Shown: positions 121 to 11,775, numbered from the stretch's first letter. The stretch: DNA of 11,775 nucleotides from Deinococcales bacterium (GCA_031414595.1 JANNVX010000110.1:1-11775), one strand, 5' to 3'. Made by a program: numbers and translations. The notes: generated from the sequence alone by a model not told the origin.

Positions 121-1461
121 CTACTTTTGACCAGTAGTTAGATTCATATTATAAAAATTTATAAGATGGAAGAAATTTCTTGTATCTTTAGAGTTAATGA
201 AAAAACTTACCCCTAGGAGATTATTGTCATGCACCATAGCACTATCAATTATTGTATAGAAATTTTTCCCTTGGGTTGAAAACTGAAATGAATCAATAAA
301 ACTTGGCTCATTCGATTTGGCTGAATAAATAAAAGTGTCATTTGCTAAAAATTCATCCAAAGTTGGCGAAAGAATATATGCAATGGTGTTACGAATAAAA
401 CCAGATGTAATAGTTTGGATAGTTAGAAGACTCAAGGCAATTGCAATAGGTAAGGCTCGAGTCAAAATCCAAAACCAATTTAATTTCTTATTCTGAGGTG
501 TAATAGCTTGAGAAGTGGCTTTTTGTTTCTCAAACCCACTTAATAATTTTAGCCGCATTTCTTCTGCGGCAGAATACCTAAACTCCATCCGCAACTCGAG
601 CGCCTTCTCAAGAATATCCCCCAATTCCCTCGAGACTTTCTGCACTGCAATCATGCTCGGCTCAATGCTTGCGCCATTGGCTCGGTCTAAGGCGCTTGGC
701 ACTCGAGAACCCGTCATGGCTTCACAAAATGTAGCCGCCAAAGCATACAAATCTGTGGCTGGGCTAAGCGTTACTTCCGAACCAAACTGCTCGAGTGGGG
801 CGTATTCAGGTGTGGCAATGCGGCTACTGACTTTGGTTCGTTCGCCTTTTCTAAATTCGGTCAAGCTACCAAAATCTATCAGTTCGACTTTGTTGGGTGT
901 AAACATGATATTGGCTGGTTTAATATCACGGTGCAAAAATCCGTGGCTATGCAGTTCTCCTAAGACCTCGAGAATGGTCAGCAGGGCTTGTTTGGTTTCT
1001 TCGGCTGTTAAGAGTTGTCCGTTCTGAATTCGACTCTCGAGGGTTTGCCCATCTAAAAGCTCTAACGCCATGTACGCGGTGCTGTTTTCTTCCCAGTACG
1101 CAAAGAGTTTTGTGGCACTTGGGTGCTTAAGTTTTCGCAGCATTTGTGCTTCGCGGCTTGTTCGGGCTATTGCGCTTTGCATTTCAGCTTGGCTCGAGGT
1201 GCTGACTTGCTTGTTGTAGCCCCTTGAAGCCAGTCCTTCTGGGAAAAGTTCTTTAATTGCCACATACTTTTGTTGCTCGAGGTGCAGTGCTTTGTAGACA
1301 ATACCAAAGCCTCCTCGTCCTAAAACAGATTGAATTTCTAAGGTATTGCCAAAAAGCAGTGTGCCGTTTGGTAATTCATCAGAGCCAAGACTCGAGCCAC
1401 AGGTTACGCATTGTGTGACTTGGTTTGTGTTTTCGGTTTGGCAATAAGGACAAGTCAGCAT
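121..1461 (-). CDS. Hanks-type Ser/Thr protein kinase with N-terminal Zn ribbon, one TM helix and a probably truncated C-terminal domain
   Basis: CPYC...CVTC Zn ribbon; kinase motifs GRGGFGIV, VAIKE, HRDIKPAN, DFG, TPEYAPLEQ and DLYALA; hydrophobic segment NWFWILTRALPIAIALSLLTI. Confidence 0.95.
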   Translation of the reverse strand: MLTCPYCQTENTNQVTQCVTCGSSLGSDELPNGTLLFGNTLEIQSVLGRGGFGIVYKALHLEQQKYVAIKELFPEGLASRGYNKQVSTSSQAEMQSAIARTSREAQMLRKLKHPSATKLFAYWEENSTAYMALELLDGQTLESRIQNGQLLTAEETKQALLTILEVLGELHSHGFLHRDIKPANIMFTPNKVELIDFGSLTEFRKGERTKVSSRIATPEYAPLEQFGSEVTLSPATDLYALAATFCEAMTGSRVPSALDRANGASIEPSMIAVQKVSRELGDILEKALELRMEFRYSAAEEMRLKLLSGFEKQKATSQAITPQNKKLNWFWILTRALPIAIALSLLTIQTITSGFIRNTIAYILSPTLDEFLANDTFIYSAKSNEPSFIDSFQFSTQGKNFYTIIDSAMVHDNNLLGVSFFINSKDTRNFFHLINFYNMNLTTGQK

Positions 1462-1578
1462 GGTTTTTTTTACGAGACAAGTGGGCTTTGGGTTTCACTC
1501 GAGATGATTGCTACGGAATTTTTGGGCAAACTGGAACTGCCAAAGCAGTAGCTATTTTTCAAATAGGGTGTGCATCTT

Positions 1579-1794
1579 TTATCTTTCTCGAACTTGATTC
1601 AAAAATGCCAAGGCTCGAGTGCGACATAACTCTGCATCGGACAATTCAAACGGCTCGAGGGTGACAAACAGCACTTCAAGCGAGTCCCCCAACCAGACGG
1701 CAGCAACTCGCCCACCACAAATGCGTCCAATACTGATTTCGGGCAAGCCAGACAGCACCTCGAGTAGCGCAGCTTCACCAATGGTTTTTAACAT
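1579..1794 (-). CDS. Small hypothetical protein (71 aa) coupled to the ftsB-like gene
   Basis: Its ATG overlaps the upstream stop (TAATG at 1796-1792 on the minus strand). Same strand as its neighbours and fills the gap. No recognisable motif. Confidence 0.6.
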   Translation of the reverse strand: MLKTIGEAALLEVLSGLPEISIGRICGGRVAAVWLGDSLEVLFVTLEPFELSDAELCRTRALAFLNQVRER

Positions 1795-2108
1795 TAACGC
1801 ACCTTTGGCACAATCACGGTTTCGCCACGTTTAACAAAGCCCTGCTTACGTGCCAGACGTTCCAAGTACAGTTTATCTTCACGGGCTTGGGTGGCTCGTT
1901 CTTTTAACAATTTAATCTCGAGTTTGAGGGTATTGATTTTTTCTTGTTCAACACCAGCAGCTTGAGCAGACTCGACATGACGATACAAAGTTAAGCCCGT
2001 CCAGATGGTCAGTTGTACTAAACCAAGTCCCAACAAAAACGTCAACAACAACTGCGGCAAGAAATTCCGCAACGGGCGAGGCGTGGTAATTTTCCCAAGA
2101 TTAGTCAC
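1794..2108 (-). CDS. ftsB: FtsB/DivIC-like septum formation initiator
   Basis: Short N-terminus, single TM helix (LLLTFLLGLGLVQLTIW), coiled coil and C-terminal YLERLARKQGFVKRGE typical of FtsB/DivIC. Start placed at GTG 2108 because an extended -10 lies just upstream; the ORF extends to 2144. Confidence 0.8.
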   Translation of the reverse strand: MTNLGKITTPRPLRNFLPQLLLTFLLGLGLVQLTIWTGLTLYRHVESAQAAGVEQEKINTLKLEIKLLKERATQAREDKLYLERLARKQGFVKRGETVIVPKVR

Positions 2109-2116
2109 TGCTAGGC

Positions 2117-2125
2117 AGTCTAGCA
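2117..2125 (-). promoter_or_regulatory. Extended -10 box (TGcTAGACT) for a probably leaderless ftsB transcript
   Basis: Minus strand reads TGC-TAGACT, 8 nt, then GTG (2108). No SD sequence. Confidence 0.5.
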
Positions 2126-2164
2126 CACTATCGGCATCAAGCAATACGTGGCTGGCAGATTCGT

Positions 2165-3244
2165 TTATTGGGTCACACGATTGAGGACAAATTTTAAGTC
2201 AACCGGGCGTTTATTGCGCCAAACACTGAGGGTTACTGTGTCTCCCGGACGGCGTTTGGCGACTTGTTGAATCACATCGTAACGCCCTTGAACATTGGTG
2301 TTGCCGACCTTAAGAATGATGTCGCCTAAACTGGTGATACGTCCATCGCGGTCGCGCACCGAAGCCCGAAGCCCGGCTCGAGCCGCCGCACCACTCGGGT
2401 CAACCTCCAAGACCAGTGCGCCGCGATTAGAGTTTAAGCCAACACTGGTTAAAGCAAACGGCTCGAGTTCAGCCACATCTTTAAGTTCTGCACCCAGCTT
2501 GCCCCGTTGCGAAACCCCAAACCGCTCGAGGTCGGATAGACTTTGTTGTACCAAAGGCGCGGGAATAGCCAAGCCAATTTTTCCAGTGGCAGTCAGACTA
2601 CTTTCTAAGTTAGCATCCACCACGCCAATCACCAAACCTTTACTGTCCAGCACAGGTCCGCCAGAATTGCCACTTTCGATATTGGCATCGGTCAGCATCA
2701 TCTCAGGGATTTCAATGCCAATTTCATCGGGGAATTCTTCGATGCGATTAAAGCCAGAAACCACGCCAGTCGAAATATTATTGGGTTTGCGTTGCGGACT
2801 GCCTAGCACAATGGCTTTTTGCCCAGGCAAAACTTCGCCGCTCGAGAATTTCAGGACTGTTGGGGCAGTCACCCCTTGGATACTCAGCACCGCAATGTCT
2901 ATACCAATGTCGTAACCTTGGATTTCGGCACGAAAACGCCGTCCATCCCAGAGCTGCACTTGTACGCCAACTGGGTCGTTGTTGACGGCATGGTAATTGG
3001 TGATGATGCGGTTAGAAGTGTAGAAAAAACCGGTTGAGTAAATGTTGGGGTCTTCGCCTTGTGGCACGGCTTCGGGAGCGCTCTTAGAAATAATTGTTAC
3101 AACCCCACGCATATTGCGGGTTTTGACTTCGACATTGTTTATTTCGTCTGGTGTGACCAAACGAGACTGAGCGGCGGTAAAACCAGAGTAATACCCCAAA
3201 CCGATTGCGATTACAAACACCAATAAGACACCAAGTCGCCACAC
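2165..3244 (-). CDS. htrA: HtrA/DegQ-family trypsin-like serine protease with a PDZ domain
   Basis: N-terminal TM/signal segment; catalytic triad motifs TNYHAV, DIAVL and GNSGGP; C-terminal PDZ (SGAAARAGLR...GDIILKV...GDTVTLSVWR). Confidence 0.95.
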   Translation of the reverse strand: MWRLGVLLVFVIAIGLGYYSGFTAAQSRLVTPDEINNVEVKTRNMRGVVTIISKSAPEAVPQGEDPNIYSTGFFYTSNRIITNYHAVNNDPVGVQVQLWDGRRFRAEIQGYDIGIDIAVLSIQGVTAPTVLKFSSGEVLPGQKAIVLGSPQRKPNNISTGVVSGFNRIEEFPDEIGIEIPEMMLTDANIESGNSGGPVLDSKGLVIGVVDANLESSLTATGKIGLAIPAPLVQQSLSDLERFGVSQRGKLGAELKDVAELEPFALTSVGLNSNRGALVLEVDPSGAAARAGLRASVRDRDGRITSLGDIILKVGNTNVQGRYDVIQQVAKRRPGDTVTLSVWRNKRPVDLKFVLNRVTQ

Positions 3245-3250
3245 AAGTCC

Positions 3251-3256
3251 ATTGTA
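3251..3256 (-). promoter_or_regulatory. -10 box TACAAT for leaderless htrA
   Basis: Minus strand reads TACAAT-GGACTT-GTG, a 6-nt spacer to the start codon. No SD sequence. Confidence 0.65.
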
Positions 3257-3361
3257 CTTCTTTGCACAAAAGAAAACACAAAATCAGATGATAAACCCTC
3301 AATCAAGGTATTCTTTGCCTTTGCACATGTTTTTCAGGCTTAAAAGCGCAAAAATAGCAAT

Positions 3362-3715
3362 ATGAAATCATTCATCCTGACCTCCGTTATGCTGCTCACT
3401 TCAAGTTTTGCCAGTTCCCCCCTCGAGAAAACATGGCAGTTGGGTACAACCCAGAGCATCACCTTTGAAGCTGGCAAAGTCAGTGGTTTTGCGGGCTGCA
3501 ACTCATTTTTTGGCACGTACACCCAACAAGGCGCAAATCTGAACTTCTCGAGTATGGGGAGTACCCGCAAAGCCTGCGAGAAAAATATTATGACTAGCGA
3601 AGCCAAATTTTTAAGCTTACTCGAGAAAAACCGACGTTTTTTAATAAGTCAAGATGGAATGCGCTTAACCCTGATAGGTGAAACGATCCTACGTTTTACC
3701 AGCCCCAAACGTTAG
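3362..3715 (+). CDS. Secreted META-domain (HslJ-like) protein
   Basis: Signal peptide ending SFA; META motifs VSGFAGCNSFFGTY, STRKAC and E.KFLSLL. Confidence 0.9.
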   Translation: MKSFILTSVMLLTSSFASSPLEKTWQLGTTQSITFEAGKVSGFAGCNSFFGTYTQQGANLNFSSMGSTRKACEKNIMTSEAKFLSLLEKNRRFLISQDGMRLTLIGETILRFTSPKR

Positions 3716-3718
3716 AAT
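3713..3718 (+). promoter_or_regulatory. -10 box TAGAAT for the leaderless ABC-F gene, overlapping the META stop codon
   Basis: TAGAAT-TGGTAC-ATG(3725), a 6-nt spacer. No SD sequence. Confidence 0.6.
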
Positions 3719-3724
3719 TGGTAC

Positions 3725-5947
3725 ATGCTGCTTCGTGCCATTGATATTCGCCTGAATTATGCTCAAGAAACCATTCTTGGGGGCGTTTCGTTGCTGCTCG
3801 AGAGCAAAAACCGTGTGGCACTGACAGGTCGTAATGGTAGTGGTAAGACTTCTTTACTAAAAATTTTGATGCAGACCCTAAAACCAGATTCGGGTTCACT
3901 CGAGATTTTTAGGCGTTTAGGCTGGCTCGAGCAAGACCCGAATTTTGCGGGTTTGACTGTCCAAGCAGTGATGCAGCAAGCCATGACCCATTTGCAGCAA
4001 CTCGAAGCCCATTTGCGCCTCCTCGAGCAGACTGCCAACATTGGCGAAGAATGGGCAGTCACCCTAGAAGCCTTTGAACAAGCGGGTGGCTATGTGGCAC
4101 AAGCTCGAGCCGAAGCGACTTTAGAAGCCCTCGGTTTGACCGAATTTTTAGACCGCCAAGCCGATTCTTTAAGCGGTGGTGAACGCACCCGACTGGCACT
4201 GGCAGCTGTTCTCATTGCCCAACCCGATGTGCTGCTTTTGGACGAGCCGACCAATCATTTGGATATAGATATGCGAATTTTTCTCGAGAAGCGTCTGCTC
4301 GAATACCACGGCGCAGTGCTGATTGTTTCGCATGACCGACGTTTATTAGACGCAGTTTGCCAAGAAACCCTGCATCTTGAACGCGGGGAGCTAGCCCGAT
4401 ACGCGGGTGGTTATAGTAAATCCCGTGCAGCCCGACTCGAGGCAAGGCGGATTCAAGCCAAGACCGCTCGAATCGGTGGTTTTGAACTGCGCCGCTTACG
4501 CAGTGCGGCTAAAACTGTGGCGGCTTGGGGAGTGAACAATGCTAAATTAGCCCGTCGTGCCAAAGCCTTGGCTTCTCGAGCCGAGCGTTTAACTGTCGTG
4601 GATGCACCTATTAAAGAACGGGTTTTAAGAATGCAGCTACAAAGCAACGAGCCAAAAGCCAAATTGGTCTTAAGAGCCGAACGAATCAGTAAAACATATG
4701 GTCAACGAAACATTCTTACTAAAGCTGATTTAAGACTTCGGACTGGTGACAGAGTAGCGCTGCTGGCTAAAAATGGGGCGGGTAAAACCACGCTGCTTAG
4801 AATCCTGCTTGGCGAACTACCCCCAGATATTCCCGACCCACTCGAGCCTCCCGAAGTGCGTTATGCCGATGGTGTGACTGTAGCTTACTTTGACCAGAAT
4901 TATCACGGCTTAAATCAAAAAGAACCAGTGCTAGACCAACTTAGCGCTCGAGTCGGTACAAGAAGTGCAGTTGCTTTGCTTGGGCGGTACGGTTTTCCCC
5001 CAGAAATGCAGTCTCGAATACCCAGTACCTTATCGGGTGGTGAACGCGCTCGGGCTGGACTGGCTTTAATTGCTGCTACTCGAGCCGATGTGATGATACT
5101 AGACGAACCAACCAATCACTTAGACGTAGAAACCTTAGAAGCCTTAGAAGAAGCCATTTTAGGGTATCCGGGCAGTGTTTTATTTGTCACCCATGACCGC
5201 AGTTTTGCCAAAGCGGTGGCGACTCGGGTGATGACCATAGATAATGGGCAACTGCTCGAGTTTGAACAAGGCTTTGGCGGTTTTGAAAAATTCCGTAAGG
5301 GCGAACGCCGCACCCTAGACCCAGCCAGATTGTTAGAAGGCGAAAACCCACCACCACCGCCCAAAACCTACACCCCAGAACAACAATTGCAATTACTCGA
5401 GGAGCGAGATGTAGAACTCGAGGACTTATTTTTGCACCGTGGTTTAACCGAACGCGAATGGCAACGTTACCGCATCGAAGCCCGAGCCATTTTAGAGCGC
5501 CTGTGTGAGCTTCACGCCGACCGTTACGCCATGCCAAGCGAATATGACCACGCCATGACCATTCGCCCACTCGAGATTCGAGCAGTAAGCGACGAGACGG
5601 GTTTAGCATGGCAATTCTGGGCAAAAAATTCGGCTGGTTGCCCAACCTTACACGGGGTTCTCGAGCAGCAGACCCTAACTTTAAGCTGGCAAGGAGAAAC
5701 AAAGGTTGCCCTGCCGTGGTTTACCAAAGCTGTCCTGCGCGGTGCAGTTAGCCTAGGCTTTGAGCGCCTAGGCTGTAAAAATATAATTCTGCCAGAAGTC
5801 CTCGAGCCATTTAACAATCAAATCTCAAGTCTCGAGTACGCTGTAAAATTGGGTTTAATGCGCCTACTAGCCAAACGCAAGCGCCACAGAAAACCACGTC
5901 CCACATTAACCGTAGGGGCGGGGCTTGCTTCATATACTCCGACTTAA
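3725..5947 (+). CDS. ABC-F family ribosome-associated ATPase with a long C-terminal extension
   Basis: Two NBDs: GRNGSGKT/LSGGE/LLLDEPTNHLD/SHDR and AKNGAGKT/LSGGE/ILDEPTNHLD/THDR. Basic helical interdomain linker and no TM segments. The last 11 codons lie inside the REP/MITE insertion. Confidence 0.93.
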   Translation: MLLRAIDIRLNYAQETILGGVSLLLESKNRVALTGRNGSGKTSLLKILMQTLKPDSGSLEIFRRLGWLEQDPNFAGLTVQAVMQQAMTHLQQLEAHLRLLEQTANIGEEWAVTLEAFEQAGGYVAQARAEATLEALGLTEFLDRQADSLSGGERTRLALAAVLIAQPDVLLLDEPTNHLDIDMRIFLEKRLLEYHGAVLIVSHDRRLLDAVCQETLHLERGELARYAGGYSKSRAARLEARRIQAKTARIGGFELRRLRSAAKTVAAWGVNNAKLARRAKALASRAERLTVVDAPIKERVLRMQLQSNEPKAKLVLRAERISKTYGQRNILTKADLRLRTGDRVALLAKNGAGKTTLLRILLGELPPDIPDPLEPPEVRYADGVTVAYFDQNYHGLNQKEPVLDQLSARVGTRSAVALLGRYGFPPEMQSRIPSTLSGGERARAGLALIAATRADVMILDEPTNHLDVETLEALEEAILGYPGSVLFVTHDRSFAKAVATRVMTIDNGQLLEFEQGFGGFEKFRKGERRTLDPARLLEGENPPPPPKTYTPEQQLQLLEERDVELEDLFLHRGLTEREWQRYRIEARAILERLCELHADRYAMPSEYDHAMTIRPLEIRAVSDETGLAWQFWAKNSAGCPTLHGVLEQQTLTLSWQGETKVALPWFTKAVLRGAVSLGFERLGCKNIILPEVLEPFNNQISSLEYAVKLGLMRLLAKRKRHRKPRPTLTVGAGLASYTPT

Positions 5948-6233
5948 TCGTTTTTGCTGTTTGTAACAACAAATCTTATGTTCCAATTCGTGACTTCGCA
6001 CTAGGTTTTTGTCCTCCCCGCGAAGCAGGGGAGGTGGCAAGCGAAGCGCGTCGGAGGGGTCTCGCACAGCGTCTCTTCGTTTCCGCGCCGCAGACCCCTC
6101 CGTCACTCGTTGCACTTCTTGACCACAAAAGCAGCACCTTCGGGCTTGGGTCGCTCGTGCCACCTCCCACCTGTCTAACGACAGGGGAGGACTTTTTCGC
6201 GCTGCACACGTTTTTCTTGATTAAGTCGGAGTA
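5935..6233. mobile_element. 299-bp non-autonomous MITE with 15-bp TIRs and a 4-bp CATA target duplication
   Basis: TACTCCGACTTAATC (5935-5949) and GATTAAGTCGGAGTA (6219-6233) form a perfect inverted repeat. CATA flanks both sides directly (5931-5934 and 6234-6237). No transposase ORF inside. Confidence 0.85.
6011..6192. repeat. GC-rich multi-stem palindromic element (CCTCCCC...GGGGAGG type) inside the MITE
   Basis: Nested inverted repeats: GTCCTCCCC 6011-6019 with GGGGAGGAC 6184-6192; GGGAGGTGGCA 6029-6039 with TGCCACCTCCC 6158-6168; CGGAGGGGTCT 6052-6062 with AGACCCCTCCG 6092-6102. Also two GCGAAGC mini-hairpins (6020-6026 and 6041-6047). Confidence 0.8.
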
Positions 6234-6267
6234 CATAACACAGGGGTTCGCCCCTACGAAAAACCTT

Positions 6268-6393
6268 TTAACTGTATCCTTGCCCGAAACAAAACTCACC
6301 TCACCTGAACCCCCTGTAAAACCCCCAAGCCCCCTGCTCGAGACCAGCAAAAAACGGCGACGGCGTAAGCGCAAAAAGGTCATTACAGTGTGA
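6268..6393 (+). pseudogene. Probable detached original C-terminal tail of the ABC-F gene
   Basis: Reads LTVSLPETKLTSPEPPVKPPSPLLETSKKRRRRKRKKVITV*. It has no convincing start of its own and matches the composition of the ABC-F end (KRKRHRKPRPTLT). It joins in frame through TTAACCGTA (5906-5914) and TTAACTGTA (6268-6276). Confidence 0.5.
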
Positions 6394-6414
6394 GAAACGC
6401 TACATATCCGATTT

Positions 6415-6430
6415 TGTCACGCACCTGACA
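6415..6430. promoter_or_regulatory. Palindromic operator-like site TGTCA-N6-TGACA
   Basis: TGTCA-CGCACC-TGACA with T- and A-rich flanks, covering the expected -35 region of the DUF2207 promoter. Confidence 0.45.
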
Positions 6431-6439
6431 TAAATTCTG

Positions 6440-6445
6440 TACAAT
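6440..6445 (+). promoter_or_regulatory. -10 box TACAAT for the leaderless DUF2207 gene
   Basis: TACAAT-GAGAGTT-ATG(6453). The ORF-track ATG at 6444 lies within the -10 box, so the real start is probably 6453. Confidence 0.6.
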
Positions 6446-6452
6446 GAGAGTT

Positions 6453-8294
6453 ATGAAGTCAGTCCGAATGTTTTTACTGCTCTTGTGTTTTTTCTCGAGT
6501 CACGCAGTTGCCAAGTCATTTACTTTTTCTAACATCGAGCAGGATGTGTATTTTGAAGCCAATGGACGTGTTCGGGTGATTGATACCCGCACCTATGATT
6601 TTGACGGAGATTTTAGCAAAGCCTACCTAAATGTGGATTCTCGAGGCTCAGTCAAATTTGAAGGCGTACAAGCCCTTGATGGCAAGGCGTTTTATGGGTT
6701 TATCATAGATGGCAACACGATTAACTGGTCGTATGCCGCCAGCGACGAGCAACGCCAATTTCGGATTATTTATTCAATGGCAAATGAACTCGATGTTGCC
6801 CAAGATGGCGCAAAATTTGACCGCCAAATTCTCGAGCCAGAACATGTGGCGGTTGGCAATTACACCGTGCGGCTTCATGCCCCAAATGGTTCACCCGACC
6901 CGTTTAAGGTTTTTGTGTTTTCCAGAAATGCGCGGCTTGGCACACTGAGTTTTGATGACCCAAAAGGCATTGCCACCATCAGTATGCAAAATGTATCCGA
7001 GGATGAATGGGTGCGTACTTTTGTGCTGTTACCGGCTGGTCAGTTTTTGAATCGCAATTTAGAAGGCAACCAATTACCAACATGGCTCGAGGGCTTAAAA
7101 CTCGAGACGGCTGCTTTTCGCAATGCCTCAGCGCAAGCCATCGCAAGAGGAGGTTTTGCCCCGCCACCGCCGCCGCCGCCAGCTTGGTTACTGGCATTGC
7201 CTTTGGTGGGGGCATTGTTTTTTGGTGGAACGATTTGGAACACCTACCAAAAATACGGACGTGAGCCAAACATCCCCGAAGTCGGCAGGTATTACCGTGA
7301 ACCTGCACAGAATATCCCGCCGGGCATCGTTCCGTATGTCATGGGGATCATCAATCCGGGCAGTGGGGCATTGGGGGCAGCCATCAGTGCAACCTTAATG
7401 GATTTTACCAGACGCGGTTTTCTCGAGCTACGCAAAGGGCAGACCAGTGGCTTTTTGGGTATGGGCAAAAAAGAAGAGGTTCAGTTTGAACTCGCCAAAC
7501 GCCCGCAGGACGGCGAATTAACCGATTTTGAAGAAGAAATTTGGAACATTGTTAATCGCGCCAGAGGTTTTGATAACATTGTTACCCAAACCGAATTAAA
7601 AACCTATTTCGCCATGAGTTCAAGCAGTTTACAAACACTCTCGAGTCTGCCGCGTCAGTGGTACGAAGATAAATTTGGCGCATTGCTCGATACCTCCGAC
7701 AGCAGCAAAACCACACCGATTATCGTCGCCGCTTTTATCCTTGGTTTACTGACTTTTTTTGCTGCCTTGTTCTTTGTGATTGAATCAAGTCCAGCTTTGG
7801 GTTTTATGCTGGCAGCCGCCGGAATGCTGACTTTACTGGGTGGAATTCTAGCCAGTATCTCCTTATCTCGGTGGAACGCCGATAAGTTACTCAATGCCAA
7901 ACGCTGGAGTGCTTATAAGAATTTCTTGCTCGATTTTTCACAAATGGAAACCGCCCCAGCCGAACACCTAAAACTCTGGGATTATCATTTTGTCTACGCC
8001 ACTGCTTTAGGGGTTGCCCAACCGTACTTAAAGAACTTACGCACCCTAGCCGAGCGTTACCCACAGTATTATCACGCGCCGTACTGGTTGCCAGCTTCGT
8101 ATTACAGCAGCAATGTATCTGACTTAAATAACCTCTCGAGTCAATTGGCGGCGGTCAACAGTTTAGCCAGTTTGTCCAGTAACCTCAGCAGCTTAGAAAG
8201 TGCCTTATCAAGCAGTTCTGGCAGTGGTGGAGGTTTTAGCGGCGGTAGTTCTGGCGGCTCGAGCGGAGGTGGTGGCTCGAGTGGTGCAAGCTAA
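6453..8294 (+). CDS. DUF2207 (YciQ-like) predicted membrane protein
   Basis: Signal peptide (..HAVA), beta-rich extracellular domain, Pro7 linker and TM helices. Motifs AISATLMDF.RRGFL, W.AYKNFL.DFS and LWDYHFVYATALGV, plus a Gly/Ser-rich C-tail. Adjacent to lemA, a common pairing. Confidence 0.88.
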   Translation: MKSVRMFLLLLCFFSSHAVAKSFTFSNIEQDVYFEANGRVRVIDTRTYDFDGDFSKAYLNVDSRGSVKFEGVQALDGKAFYGFIIDGNTINWSYAASDEQRQFRIIYSMANELDVAQDGAKFDRQILEPEHVAVGNYTVRLHAPNGSPDPFKVFVFSRNARLGTLSFDDPKGIATISMQNVSEDEWVRTFVLLPAGQFLNRNLEGNQLPTWLEGLKLETAAFRNASAQAIARGGFAPPPPPPPAWLLALPLVGALFFGGTIWNTYQKYGREPNIPEVGRYYREPAQNIPPGIVPYVMGIINPGSGALGAAISATLMDFTRRGFLELRKGQTSGFLGMGKKEEVQFELAKRPQDGELTDFEEEIWNIVNRARGFDNIVTQTELKTYFAMSSSSLQTLSSLPRQWYEDKFGALLDTSDSSKTTPIIVAAFILGLLTFFAALFFVIESSPALGFMLAAAGMLTLLGGILASISLSRWNADKLLNAKRWSAYKNFLLDFSQMETAPAEHLKLWDYHFVYATALGVAQPYLKNLRTLAERYPQYYHAPYWLPASYYSSNVSDLNNLSSQLAAVNSLASLSSNLSSLESALSSSSGSGGGFSGGSSGGSSGGGGSSGAS

Positions 8295-8390
8295 GCCCCA
8301 CACTGGCGGCGTATTTAAGACCCACACAGCATTTTTTGAGATAATGCGCTACGCTCTACATGCAAATTATTCGTCCTTCGCCCTCTCTCA

Positions 8391-8426
8391 GAGCTTTTAG
8401 CTCACAGCTAGAAGCTCATTAAGGAG
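8391..8426 (+). promoter_or_regulatory. 11-bp hairpin followed by the lemA Shine-Dalgarno
   Basis: GAGCTTTTAGC-TCACA-GCTAGAAGCTC (8391-8417, one G-U pair). AAGGAG at 8421-8426 lies 5 nt before the ATG. Confidence 0.55.
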
Positions 8427-8431
8427 TTCTC

Positions 8432-8980
8432 ATGGGTCCAATTATTGTTCTGGTGGTTGTTGCGCTACTTGTGGTCTTTGCGATTGGTGTTTTTAATAAC
8501 ATTGTTTCACTCGAGAATCGTGTGGCTAATGCTTTGGGGCAAATAGATGTACAACTCAAAAAACGCTCTGATTTAGTGCCGAATTTGGTCAGTACAGTTA
8601 AAGGCTACGCCGCCCATGAAACCAGTGTTTTTGAAAAAGTCACAGAAGCCAGAAGTAAATTAGACAATGCCAGTGGCATCGAAGATAAAGCCGCCGCCTC
8701 GAGTCTGCTGTCTGGCGCACTCCGCACAGTTTTTGCGGTGGCAGAGGCCTACCCAGACTTAAAAGCCAATCAGAACTTTATTCAATTGCAAACCGAACTC
8801 GCCGATTTAGAAGATAAAATTGCTTACAGCCGCCAGTTCTATAACGACACCGCCCTCGAGTTTAACAATTCGATTACCACTGTTCCGGGCGTATTCTTTG
8901 CAAATCCGATGCAAAAGACTAAGAAAACCATGTTTGAGGCAAGCGAGGGCGATAAAGTCGTGCCTTCGGTAGCATTTTAA
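8432..8980 (+). CDS. lemA: LemA family protein
   Basis: N-terminal TM helix; motifs IDVQLKKRSDLVPNLV..VKGYAAHE, AVAEAYPDLKANQNF.QLQ.EL and EDKIAYSRQFYND; strong SD. Confidence 0.97.
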   Translation: MGPIIVLVVVALLVVFAIGVFNNIVSLENRVANALGQIDVQLKKRSDLVPNLVSTVKGYAAHETSVFEKVTEARSKLDNASGIEDKAAASSLLSGALRTVFAVAEAYPDLKANQNFIQLQTELADLEDKIAYSRQFYNDTALEFNNSITTVPGVFFANPMQKTKKTMFEASEGDKVVPSVAF

Positions 8981-11637
8981 GCCAGTTGTAGTAGCTTTGT
9001 GCTTTGCAACAACAGCATCGTGGTTTCTAAACCACGTTCAAGCCCTCGAGTCGTGGCGCGTTGGAAGTTTTCTTGCCCGATTCGTTGCTGTAAGTACATT
9101 TGTGTCTGACTGAGGAGTGTTTTAATTTCATGATTGCTTTGGGGGTGATTCAGTGCCAAGCCTAAGTATTCGCAAGCACTGAACAGTTCATTTTGACCGA
9201 CAAGAACATGAGCAAAACCTGCCAGAACCTCGAGTTGTAAACGCTGGTCATGGAGTTCTCGAGCCAGAGCAAGGGCTTTTAAGTAATAGTCTTGGGCTTG
9301 GGTAAACTGACCTAAAGTGACGGCAATATGTCCAAGCTGAATTTGGATATAACTGGCATCACGGTTGGTGGCTAAGTCTTTACAAATGGCTAGGGCTTCT
9401 AAAAAAAGTTCTTGAGCTGTATCTAACTCCCCAGCTTTCATTTCGATTCGCCCTAAGTTGGTGAAATGTAGAATCTGCCCAAAACGATTTCCAATTTTTT
9501 GGGAAATCTCGAGGGCTTCGGTCTGGCAAGCTCGAGCGCTGGCAAAATCTTGACGCTCAGCCGCCACACTGCCCAAGGCACTCAAAATTAGGGCAATCCC
9601 ACTGACCGAAGCCGTAGGACGCAGAATTGTAAGCGATTCCTCGAGTAACCTAGAAGCCTTAGCTAAATCACCACCAATCATCATTTCGGCTTGTCCTAAC
9701 CAAGACATGGCAATGGCTCGAATAAATTTATTTTGGGCTAAATCCACCGTTTCTTCGCAAACTTGGTGCATTTCTTGAAAATGTCCTAGGCGATTTAAGG
9801 AACGCGCCCAGATGTTACGGGCTGAACCCAGTAAATCTAAGTCATTGAGTTCTGTGGCAATGTCCATACTTTTTTGTACGCTCTGGATTGAAGTATGTAA
9901 ATCACCGAGCATTTGTTGTAATTGCGCCAATGACATCCAAGCATTACAAAGTAAGTGGCTGATTGGCGCTGGATTATCTTGTAGACTGGCTTTAAGCCAA
10001 GTGATACCTTCGCGCAGTAAACCACTACGAATCCAAAACCCACTCAAAGCGGTAGCTAATTCCATTAAAAAATTCTGATCATTGCCTGCTTGCGCCCATG
10101 TTAAGGCGGTGCGTAAATTATCCAATTCGGCTTCTAAAGTAAGCAATAACGTCTGTTCAAAAGCGTGTAACTTGTGGTTATTTTGTTCAACAAAATCCAA
10201 ATAATAGCCAGCATGGGCATGGGCAACTTCTGCCCAATCGTTTTCGACTAAGCGCAATTTTTCGGCAGCGTATTCCCTAATCAGTTCATGCAAACTAAAA
10301 CGCCCAGCGCTAAAACGCAGTAAACTTTTTGAAGTTAAACTCAGCAAATCGCGGTTGCCAATGCCCGTGATGGTCATGGCGGCTTCTTTACTAAAACCAC
10401 CCCTAAAAATAGACAAGCGCCTTAAACTGCGTTGCTCGGTGGCAGATAACAACTGCCATGAATAAGCAAAAGTCGCCCGTAAACCCGCTTGACGTGGCGG
10501 TAAATCGCTTAAGCCACCTTCAAGAAAATCGAGGCTTTGTATAATTTCATGTTCAATATCGGCAATGCTCATGGCTCGCATCCACGCGGCTGCCAGTTCT
10601 AAAGCCAAAGGCGCACCAGCCAGTAACACACAGACTCGAGCCGCCGCATCTTGTTCGGCTTGGTTGGGTTGCCATGCTCTGTGTCGTCGCACTGCTGCCA
10701 CAAATGCCAGCCCAGCCCCCGTCTGCATCAGTTCTGCCCCAGACTTTGGCAGGCTTAAACCACCCAGTTCAAGCACATGCTCAGCCCGAACCTCGAGACG
10801 GGTTCTCGAGGTAAAAAGCAGGGTCAAGTGCGGGATGGTACAGAACCGAAGCGCAAATTCTCGAGCCGTATCTATACAATGCTCAACATTATCAAGCACC
10901 AAGACCAAACGATTTTCTCGGCGCATTAAGGCATCAAAAAGGTTGTCTTCTAAGGCATTACTGGACATAAAACCAAGCCCTAAAGCCGAGATAACACTCG
11001 GCGCGAAACTACTATTGGCTTGCAGACCGACCAAAGGCACAAAGACCACATCGGTATTTGTGGCTAAGCCGCGAACCGCTTCAAGTGCCAGACTGGTTTT
11101 ACCAATGCCGCCAATGCCCATGACGGTGACTAAGTTATTCTCGAGTAACCATGCACGCAATAAACCCAGTTCGGTCTCGCGTCCTAAAAGTGGGGTTAGG
11201 GCTTGTGGCAAAACAAAACGCGAAGCCGCAGGTGCAACTTTGGCAGCCACTTGGGTCAGTCGCCCAAGCGCCAAGATTATTTCTTCAGACAGAACTTCAC
11301 CAAGCTCGAGTAATTCACGTTCAAAACGCGCCACCATCTTTTCGGCACGGGAAACCTGATTTGCTTCACCCGCCAAACGAATAAATTCAAGCAGAATTAC
11401 TTCGTCTAAAACCCCTAAGTTCTCGAGTAAATCCAGCCCCTCGAGTGGAGAACTGGATTTAACCAAACGCAGGGTTATGTCACGGCGACCAGAGGCCATA
11501 AATTCTCGCTCTAAGGTCAGCCACGCCCCAAATTCGCTGTCGTTCGGCACAACCCCCTCGAGCAGAGTTCCATGCCCCAGTTGCAGCGCCTCGCGTTCAC
11601 GCCCAGACTGGAGCGCAGCCTTAAAATCCAGCAAATC
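8977..11637 (-). pseudogene. AfsR/SARP-like regulator (BTAD + NB-ARC STAND ATPase + TPRs), 5'-truncated by an IS630-like insertion
   Basis: Begins abruptly at DLLDFKAAL..ALQL..G.LLEG..EFGAWL..ERE, the start of a BTAD domain. Then Walker A GIGGIGKT, Walker B VLVLDNVE, TSR, GAPLALELAA, LHELIREYA and many TPR-like repeats. The usual N-terminal wHTH is absent, and the frame is closed upstream by TAA at 11649-11647 within IS sequence. Confidence 0.8.
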
Positions 11638-11775
11638 ATACCAACTTTAGGTAGATAATAAGGAATGTCAAGATTAGGCACACCTCTAACCGCCCACCAT
11701 ACGACTGAAGAACTCGAGAAACACTACAAACAGTGCAAAGATGCCAAAGAAAAAACTCGTCGCCAAGTGATATGG
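11636..11775 (+). mobile_element. Left end of an IS630-family element
   Basis: TCATACCA at 11636 resembles IS630-type ends and coincides with the break in the STAND gene. A transposase-like ORF starts 29 nt later. The exact boundary is uncertain by a few bp. Confidence 0.7.
11665..11775 (+). CDS. IS630-family transposase N-terminus (partial, runs off the right edge)
   Basis: MSRLGTPLTAHHTTEELEKHYKQCKDAKEKTRRQVIW matches the remembered H.s.EELe..Yr..kD..e+.+.q.IW pattern of IS630 HTH N-termini. Confidence 0.8.
   Translation, partial: MSRLGTPLTAHHTTEELEKHYKQCKDAKEKTRRQVIW

Follow-up and report, generated by a model that had tools for sequence, protein, structure and literature searches.

The hexamer CTCGAG recurs throughout the genome of a Deinococcales bacterium, and we report it with high confidence as a genuine highly iterated palindrome (HIP), a bare 6-bp word found in every sampled genome of one uncultured Deinococcales family. 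The window, by which we mean the whole 11,775-bp contig analysed here (GCA_031414595.1, JANNVX010000110.1:1-11775), holds 70 exact copies, the first at 456 and the last at 11718. The original prediction, made from this stretch alone, was of a palindrome resembling HIP1 (GCGATCGC), the iterated word of cyanobacteria, in an organism outside that phylum. This placement holds: the nearest named records for the ABC-F protein encoded in the window are both entitled 'MAG: Deinococcales bacterium' (96% and 94% identity), and the next are metagenome-assembled genomes (MAGs) of Trueperaceae at about 43%.

In the source genome (4.49 Mb in 120 contigs, GC 47.2%), CTCGAG occurs 23,235 times, one site per 193 bp or about 5,200 per Mb, and takes up about 3% of all bases. 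The observed count divided by that expected (O/E) was 23.9, 43.6, 18.1, 3.8 and 1.16 under Markov nulls of orders 0 to 4, respectively, and CTCGAG ranked first among all hexamers at orders 0–3. At orders 3 and 4 the null is assembled from sub-words that the motif itself supplies, and therefore says little; we set order 4 aside as uninformative, because CTCGA and TCGAG are themselves produced by the motif. The enrichment is thus not limited to the window, and it persists genome-wide both under the Markov nulls and under the amino-acid-preserving null given below.

Gene calls were our own and crude: 3,866 open reading frames (ORFs), none shorter than 100 aa, picked by a greedy rule on length and covering 88% of the DNA. 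By these calls genes carry CTCGAG at 5.14 per kb and the remaining DNA at 5.46 per kb, and the coding sites divide among the three codon phases as 12,102, 4,005 and 4,313, with 59% in the CTC-GAG phase. A synonymous-codon shuffle that keeps the protein and the codon usage of each gene retained 1,972 ± 40 of the 20,420 coding sites, and a permutation of codon order kept 925. Leu-Glu pairs are written CTC-GAG in 12,102 of 20,173 cases (60%), against the 1.6% that codon use elsewhere would predict; outside the motif, both CTC and GAG belong to the minor codons. No dipeptide of the proteome is more over-represented than Leu-Glu (O/E 2.23, compared with 0.98 for Glu-Leu, 0.53 for Met-Glu and 0.72 for Val-Glu), and this excess, which amounts to a doubling of the dipeptide, together with the 60% writing as CTC-GAG, indicates that pressure for CTCGAG has altered the proteins themselves.

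The predominance of the CTC-GAG phase might be taken to mean that the word is a by-product of codon usage or Leu-Glu content; other trivial sources would be a repetitive extragenic palindrome (REP), a miniature inverted-repeat transposable element (MITE), or assembly and binning. We consider all of these extremely improbable. The synonymous shuffle removes 90% of the coding sites, the density in non-coding DNA is as high as in genes, and the two codons concerned are minor ones elsewhere, so the claim that Leu-Glu frequency is not the cause stands; given the equal non-coding density, a strict dicodon-preserving shuffle is unnecessary for the main claim. None of the ten positions flanking the site on either side carries more than 0.026 bit, which rules out the core of a dispersed repeat of the REP or MITE kind. 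The motif is seen in 19 of 19 genomes of the family, and the closest named records are separately deposited MAGs.

Within the window, 200 dinucleotide-preserving shuffles gave a mean of 1.69 copies (maximum 6), and none of the 200 reached 70. Nine main ORFs, lying on both strands, contain 65 of the 70 sites (39 in phase 0 and 13 in each of the other two phases), and five sites fall between ORFs. One-off variants are scarce, with six CTCGAA, three CTCGAT and one CTCGAC. The earlier estimates of about 70 sites where few are expected, and of about ten variants, were therefore accurate, and sites were indeed found in genes on both strands, in intergenic DNA at 1498 and in all three codon phases. 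The features concerned are as follows.

456..11718, palindromic and strandless: 70 CTCGAG sites, a local sample of the genome-wide highly iterated palindrome
3422..3427, plus strand: phase-0 site, CTC-GAG read as Leu-Glu (PLEK), in the META-domain gene at 3362-3715 (Pfam META)
3547..3552, plus strand: site starting at codon position 3 (C-TCG-AG), TTC-TCG-AGT read as Phe-Ser-Ser (NFSS)
4104..4109, plus strand: site starting at codon position 2 (CT-CGA-G), GCT-CGA-GCC read as Ala-Arg-Ala (QARA), in the ABC-F ATPase gene
3725-5947: ABC-F ATPase gene (Pfam ABC_tran twice)
1498..1503, strandless: intergenic site with the kinase gene on one side and the DivIC-like gene on the other
121-1461, minus strand: Ser/Thr kinase gene
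1794-2144, minus strand: DivIC-like gene
1498, 1614, 1654, 1759 and 11713: the intergenic sites of the window

The ORFs of the window are ordinary, encoding, besides the kinase, DivIC-like, META-domain and ABC-F proteins, an HtrA-type protease, a DUF2207-LemA pair and an NB-ARC/TPR STAND NTPase.

The relatives compared within the family were MAGs of 57–94% completeness together with one single-contig genome (G013). CTCGAG is present in each of the 18 further genomes of this GTDB family, which span five genera, at 4.3–6.8 per kb, and the reversed word GAGCTC occurs 0–568 times per genome. A 400-kb sample of G013 (GC 59%) had CTCGAG at 4.70 per kb (O/E 14.7), with 7.42 per kb in non-coding DNA versus about 4.3 per kb in coding DNA; set beside the source genome at GC 47.2%, this density shows that the trait holds over a 12-point range of GC. 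DNA of the window, or of part of it, is contained in 12 listed public runs, four of which hold nearly all of it; the run records point to freshwater sediment.

A mild form of the enrichment was observed in three sister families, each represented by one complete genome and a 100-kb sample (G019:C4, G025:C1 and G042:C1). Among about 4,080 hexamers, CTCGAG had an O/E of 5.0 in G019 (rank 5, and the top palindrome), 8.0 in G025 (rank 1) and 7.3 in G042 (rank 1). In these samples it stood 1.9–3.5 times above the synonymous shuffle, and in their non-coding DNA it reached 1.5–2.6 per kb, with other NTCGAN words at 0.1–2.1; whole-genome counts for G019 and G025 agree with the samples. A fourth sister family avoids the word (128–457 sites in genomes of about 4.5 Mb). 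As a continuous trait, the O/E of CTCGAG spans values from less than 0.3 up to 24. The notion of a feature of one lineage therefore had to be given up, since in the sampled Deinococcota relatives three sister families are enriched 5- to 8-fold. Their mild form suggests an old, conserved reader.

HIP1 and the alternate HIPs are short GC-rich palindromes, over-represented 15- to 300-fold (PMC4390886, PMC5861425), and CTCGAG resembles them in form, in occurring in all frames and in intergenic DNA, in being built of otherwise rare codons and in its unknown function. Like them, too, it is better conserved between related genomes than control words are, is rare in imported DNA and turns up within CRISPR repeats. 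Three of the marks by which a HIP is recognised, namely an O/E of at least about 15 for a GC-rich palindrome, presence in all frames and in non-coding DNA, and extra conservation, are each found for CTCGAG. The differences are that it belongs to another phylum, is another word, has 6 bp in place of 8 bp, and lies at about 5,200 per Mb as against 300–2,700 per Mb for HIP1 (Elhai 2015, Table 2, PMC4390886). HIP1 is also described as periodic at 10–90 kb (PMC4390886/PMC5861425). The HIP literature cited here (Elhai 2015; Xu 2018; GBE 2026; Kamoku and Nielsen 2024) concerns cyanobacteria only, and our own literature search, outside which most subscription-journal papers lay, found no report of CTCGAG over-representation in Deinococcota.

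Conservation of the sites was measured at two evolutionary distances. In 71 kb aligned to a congener at about 91% nucleotide identity, 374 sites were common to both genomes, 47 were found here only and 42 in the congener only, giving 88.8% conservation, compared with 61.2% for all hexamers and 61.3% for other hexamers with four G or C. Divergence at third codon positions was 5.7% inside sites (n = 790) versus 16–22% outside, and in non-coding DNA it was 7.1% inside (n = 156) versus 11.9% outside. The motif is thus actively kept, as had been proposed. Differences between the two genomes at sites were mostly single transitions. The one-mismatch neighbours of CTCGAG fared worse than the average hexamer, with 41.7% of transition neighbours conserved (n = 103; in 20 of these cases the congener has the perfect motif) and 46.5% of transversion neighbours (n = 86). 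In this the word is unlike HIP1, whose one-mismatch variants, HIP1*, are conserved (Xu et al. 2018, PMC5861425).

Between genera, a different picture emerged from 151 orthologues drawn from 400 kb (67% protein identity; 42% third-position identity at identical residues). Here 193 of 858 sites were common, where three would be expected from density alone; among the 493 Leu-Glu pairs kept between genera, joint use of the motif was 0.280, versus 0.265 if the two lineages were independent. Protection in the short run combined with independence in the long run implies that it is the density of, or propensity for, the word that is kept, and not particular sites. Genome-wide, transition neighbours have an O/E of 1.07–1.23 and transversion neighbours of 0.17–0.70, against a median of 0.83, and CTCGAG, with its 23,235 copies, is about 20 times commoner than the mean transition neighbour (1,155). 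Read as a two-state equilibrium, and taken straight from the counts with no fitted model, this corresponds to a scaled advantage, or conversion bias, S of about ln 20 = 3 per site. We infer that CTCGAG is maintained by a weak, uniform, exact-match bias, roughly e^3 per site, on all long-resident DNA; such a bias would call for a factor with exact 6-bp specificity that sees all DNA long resident in cells.

The spacing of the sites bears on one possible factor, an abundant dimeric nucleoid or chromosome-organising protein for which CTCGAG would be the binding site; a chromosome-organising role was proposed for HIP1 by Xu, Lawrence and Durand 2018 (PMC5861425). A homodimer would be well matched to a perfect 6-bp palindrome, and the density is even over genes and spacers. 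It is flat near gene starts, though slightly lower from −20 to +20 (4.1 per kb), and rises modestly near stop codons, to about 7.5 per kb. Gaps between sites are near-exponential (mean 191, coefficient of variation 0.99), with a hazard that settles at about 6.2 per kb for gaps of 75 to 300 bp and declines when gaps are long. An excess of pairs 7 bp apart (101 cases) was rejected as a repeat, having no common flanks. No helical periodicity of about 10.5 bp was found in the sites (top spectral power 0.05, below the 95% null of 0.088), which, like the near-exponential gaps, speaks against an organising protein.

Close pairs of sites were followed through the rate at which a second Leu-Glu is written as the motif, by its distance from a first. 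At 6 nt the motif was used in 0 of 26 cases if the first Leu-Glu was itself the motif, as against a rate of 0.59 if it was not; the corresponding rates were 0.126 and 0.46 at 9–11 nt and 0.31 and 0.56 at 12–17 nt, and at 18 nt or more motif use was the same whether or not the first pair was the motif. This mutual exclusion of sites less than 18 nt apart, visible at the synonymous level, could be the footprint of a bound protein. It could equally come from avoidance of other structures, because a pair at 6 nt would create GAGCTC, of which the genome has 6 copies, and the other short distances would give hairpins with a 6-bp stem and loops of 3–11 nt. A nucleoid protein also has no candidate here and gives no obvious reason for sites in invading DNA (see below), and we rate this explanation as very unlikely.

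The surroundings in which CTCGAG thrives are otherwise hostile to palindromes. As had been stated for bacteria in general, other 6-bp palindromes are depleted, with 32 of the 64 six-base palindromes at an O/E of 0.10 or less in this genome. The copies left are, for instance, two of TGCGCA, three each of GGCGCC and CGATCG and six of GAGCTC; GGCC occurs 152 times (O/E 0.011), and GATC has an O/E of 0.14. This depletion of palindromes and GGCC is the mark of heavy, changing restriction pressure. A related observation concerns the flanks of CTCGAG itself: the 8-bp palindrome CCTCGAGG has 178 copies, compared with 1,108–1,905 for the other fifteen words of the form NCTCGAGN, and is about 4–5 times rarer than its flanks predict. 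Its scarcity suggests either a separate restriction pressure specific to the 8-bp word or a flank preference of whatever reads CTCGAG.

CTCGAG is the word recognised by the XhoI, PaeR7I and BstVI restriction-modification systems, and restriction normally causes a site to be avoided. The genome shares with these systems the word and a gamma-class methyltransferase with a relative labelled M.BstVI (see below). It is unlike them in that the word is enriched in the host and CRISPR spacer DNA shows no avoidance of it; avoidance of the kind expected is seen in the one sister family. We accordingly rejected the idea that CTCGAG is the target of a resident XhoI/PaeR7I-type system, given its enrichment in host and spacers. 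The XhoI-family nuclease model (PF04555) matched 0 of 19 genomes, but it matched no control genome either, so that absence of the nuclease is not demonstrated.

CRISPR spacers give a view of the DNA that enters these cells, be it phage, plasmid or related chromosome. This genome has 58 spacers, none of which matches its own DNA outside the arrays; they contain nine CTCGAG (4.93 per kb; 0.43 expected from composition), and 94 spacers from four other family genomes in two genera contain 20 (7.38 per kb; 0.71 expected). One irregular array was excluded before counting. Pooled over the five genomes, 152 spacers carry 29 copies, or 6.39 per kb versus 1.13 expected (Poisson P = 1.5e-30), and the varying offsets of the word within spacers show that it has not spilled over from the repeats. 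The same spacers are poor in restriction words, with one GGCC and two CCGG where 19.9 of each would be expected. Spacers that avoid GGCC and CCGG and carry CTCGAG at host density imply that invaders do not treat CTCGAG as a restriction target. Either the factor that favours CTCGAG also acts on invaders, or the invaders are long-term members of the family's gene pool.

The CRISPR repeats themselves also carry the word. CTCGAG lies inside six of the eight repeat types seen in the family; the arrays are on contigs C11 (14152-16121), C82 (70753-71697) and C101 (43-1634) of this genome (G000) and in two relatives (G006 and G009). A HIP1 element is similarly reported within the Synechocystis CRISPR1 repeat (PMC6604393). 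The repeat of this genome was found in no other family genome. TerL_ATPase and HK97 capsid families were absent from this genome, and two spacers had no exact match in IMG/VR. Among the IMG/VR matches listed for three CTCGAG within 72 bp, 80 loci had flanks; they were mostly of GC 63–72%, GAGCTC was also common in them, and none encoded a protein of more than 39% identity to this genome.

Imported DNA behaves differently from the DNA sampled by spacers. The genome has 43 motif-free gaps longer than 1.5 kb, mostly of GC 32–40%, and these low-GC gaps are typical imported accessory DNA; the expected depletion in recently acquired islands is therefore present. The eight largest annotated gaps (including G000:C46:36667-41608) encode surface-polysaccharide enzymes, a PT-HINT toxin with a SUKH immunity gene, ABC-3C components (CTD12, DUF2326), NOV_C, PNP_UDP_1 and a clostripain-family peptidase.

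A self-DNA tag that requires no methylation could produce much of this pattern: if uptake or recombination machinery prefers DNA with CTCGAG, the word would spread by molecular drive through the family's gene pool. Such a tag would fit the use of one word across the family and its milder form in sister families, the interchangeability and turnover of sites, the altered proteins and the islands that lack the word, and it needs no conserved methyltransferase. CTCGAG is already present at 4–9 per kb in most of the genome's methyltransferase and defence genes, as if gene flow were mainly within the family. ComEC was found in five of five family genomes, a weak point because it also occurs in 10 of 14 control genomes. 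An uptake role has been argued for HIP1 in a 2026 GBE paper (PMC13756078).

Against a tag of this kind stand the properties of the uptake sequences already characterised. DUS of Neisseria and USS of Pasteurellaceae such as Haemophilus are asymmetric words of 9–12 nt at about one per kb, with a known pilin or uptake preference. They share with CTCGAG a family-wide word in core DNA that is missing from imported islands, turnover, distorted peptides and independence from any methyltransferase. CTCGAG, however, has no asymmetric core; it is palindromic over 6 bp and lies at 5 per kb, and a 6-mer would give only about 20-fold discrimination. Lytic phages, moreover, would not be driven by uptake, yet the spacers are rich in the motif, which could be reconciled with a tag only if plasmids, integrated elements or related strains supplied most of them; nor is there a receptor candidate. 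We regard an uptake or recombination tag as unlikely, though ahead of the nucleoid protein.

Chi sites, which are read by RecBCD or AddAB, are asymmetric, orientation-biased and modestly enriched. Like CTCGAG they are short over-represented 'self' words that protect or activate resident DNA, and mobile elements gain by carrying them. CTCGAG differs in being palindromic and strongly enriched, and no AddAB-size protein was seen in this genome: an AddAB/RecB-type nuclease was rejected as a Chi-like reader, the search having returned only a 256-aa PDDEXK_1 ORF.

Our overall best explanation, which we find plausible without holding it to be probable, is a HIP kept by weak bias and serving as a methylation-linked mark. 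Its narrower component, that CTCGAG is a methylatable mark of 'resident DNA', is offered more tentatively, by analogy. In this scheme CTCGAG-specific methyltransferases, exchangeable between genomes, would write the mark; it would be read when DNA is recombined, taken up or repaired, and each additional CTCGAG would give a small advantage. The methylation reading is favoured by the analogy with HIP1 and by the presence of a BstVI-like gene. Each cyanobacterial HIP is linked to a cognate methyltransferase (Elhai 2015, PMC4390886), and transformation is reported to increase more than 100-fold when HIP1 is methylated (Kamoku and Nielsen 2024, bioRxiv 10.1101/2024.09.10.611283). CTCGAG is listed as a methylated motif in Fimbriimonadia and in one host-phage subnetwork in a 2026 hot-spring epigenome preprint (10.64898/2026.06.24.734251).

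Searches with five Pfam families identified about 25 DNA methyltransferase genes in this genome, a set that differs even between close relatives. The only lead to CTCGAG specificity is an ORF on contig C89 with Eco57I and TaqI_C domains, of the gamma class, which matches the solved CamA and M.BseCI. Over 99% of its length the candidate shares 48% identity with a protein from Planktothrix entered at NCBI as 'Modification methylase BstVI', a label that comes from annotation and not from an assay. BstVI we take to be an XhoI isoschizomer cutting CTCGAG.

Several results weigh against the methylation reading, and its main weakness is that no methyltransferase is found throughout the family. The C89 enzyme was rejected as universal, having one close copy (86%) in the 12 family genomes searched, and its TaqI_C domain occurs in 5 of 18. 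The other candidates for a universal enzyme failed likewise: a Type ISP-like protein of 1,108 aa (N6_Mtase and Type_ISP_C) is present in 9 of 18 genomes, a D12 enzyme beside a MutH/Sau3AI-like gene has orthologues of more than 60% identity in 2 of 18, a divergent 424-aa enzyme is found in 7 of 18, C5 methylases have no match in G010 (91% complete), and the beta-class N4/N6 enzymes have none in the single-contig G013. Seven methyltransferase ORFs of G013 are at most 38% identical to anything here, as compared with 70–89% for neighbouring genes. The predicted conserved CTCGAG methyltransferase was thus not recovered, in that no orthologue group common to the whole family emerged from searches that may overlook an unrecognised class, and in the absence of a co-distributed enzyme from these family searches CTCGAG appears to depart from HIP1. 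The silence of the PF04555 model in all 19 genomes, with the limit given above, points the same way. Divergence from the congener rises weakly with distance from a site, from 16.4% at 1–5 bp to 21.7% beyond 320 bp, and the hazard computed from the gaps stays level or falls, with no increase farther from a site; the weak trend and the flat hazard give no clear support to Elhai's methyl-directed mismatch-repair ratchet. Gains and losses of sites relative to the congener show no hotspot of the 5-methylcytosine type. For the methylation reading to stand, enzymes that share a specificity but are not orthologous would have to replace one another.

Two side observations concern the Type ISP-like protein, which is encoded at G000:C64:35336-38662 (locus L257:5337-8663, minus strand) and has relatives at 30–96% identity. 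In its first approximately 340 residues no nuclease or helicase family was detected. In one congener the gene adjoins a stretch syntenic with the window.

Biased repair or gene conversion, in which an enzyme corrects near-cognate or mismatched sites to CTCGAG, would need no benefit to the cell at all. Host and mobile DNA would be affected alike, with similar density in all compartments; a bias as weak as about e^3 would be enough, the one-off variants would be short-lived as observed, and the higher non-coding than coding density of G013 would also fit. The precedent is Dcm/Vsr in E. coli, which raises CCWGG and lowers CTWGG, with an effect of less than 2-fold. It shows a likeness in that repair bias at a palindromic methylation site can raise a word genome-wide. 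The present case differs, with 24-fold enrichment, T-variants that are not depleted and no Vsr in five of five family genomes, under a model that did match controls. A product of Vsr repair was therefore rejected, and the suggestion of methyl-directed repair bias, in its very-short-patch form, was not supported: CTTGAG and CTCAAG have an O/E of 1.07, and the transition neighbours that include them stand above the median. There is also no conserved C5 methylase, and we know of no enzyme family that biases repair toward a 6-bp palindrome. We judge biased repair to be quite unlikely.

Taken in order of probability, the methylation mark leads, followed by the uptake or recombination tag, then repair bias, and last the nucleoid-protein site. 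A further and bolder reading is that CTCGAG is an ancient, order-wide signature of resident DNA in the Deinococcales, read by a conserved factor that is not a dedicated methyltransferase, and that the chromosome and any persisting mobile elements alike would have to carry it. We find this doubtful, and the same doubt covers it jointly with its corollary, that the signature became hyper-developed in this family and was inverted to avoidance in one sister family.

Some features of the window lie apart from these questions. Part of the kinase gene (576-1461) has a second copy, 88% identical, at G000:C22:16568-17453. The right end of the window (11635-11775) is a multi-copy element found 18 times in the genome, on 17 occasions where a contig ends, and the left end (1-141) has three copies, each likewise at the end of a contig. 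Neither end is an inverted copy of the other, and a congener has copies at 91–92% identity. These repeated ends are probably an insertion sequence or similar repeat that breaks the assembly. A short repeat at 5908-6260, which contains no CTCGAG and looks like a MITE, has 11 internal copies in the genome and pieces in most family genomes; it overlaps an ORF on the minus strand (5976-6383) with no Pfam match. One 17-kb contig of the congener (G001) aligns to three contigs of this genome (C41, C10 and C110), which reflects either frequent rearrangement or a chimeric MAG assembly.

To what is known of HIPs these genomes add new elements: a mild form in sister families, short-term protection combined with turnover between genera, unstable one-mismatch variants, motif-rich spacers, and searches that found no family-wide methyltransferase or Vsr. 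HIP1 has been a phylum-specific puzzle for about thirty years, and CTCGAG provides a second, independent and denser case in another phylum, so that the features common to both become candidate causes. Mobile DNA that carries the word, the lack of a co-distributed methyltransferase and a mild form in complete sister genomes narrow the possible mechanisms and make them testable. In practical terms, absence of CTCGAG flags imported DNA in these genomes, and its presence is a strong signal for binning and for assigning plasmids and phages to hosts of the family. If the reading as an ancient signature were true, the HIP phenomenon would be separated from cognate methylation, and these bacteria would have a new kind of DNA discrimination or processing based on sequence density.

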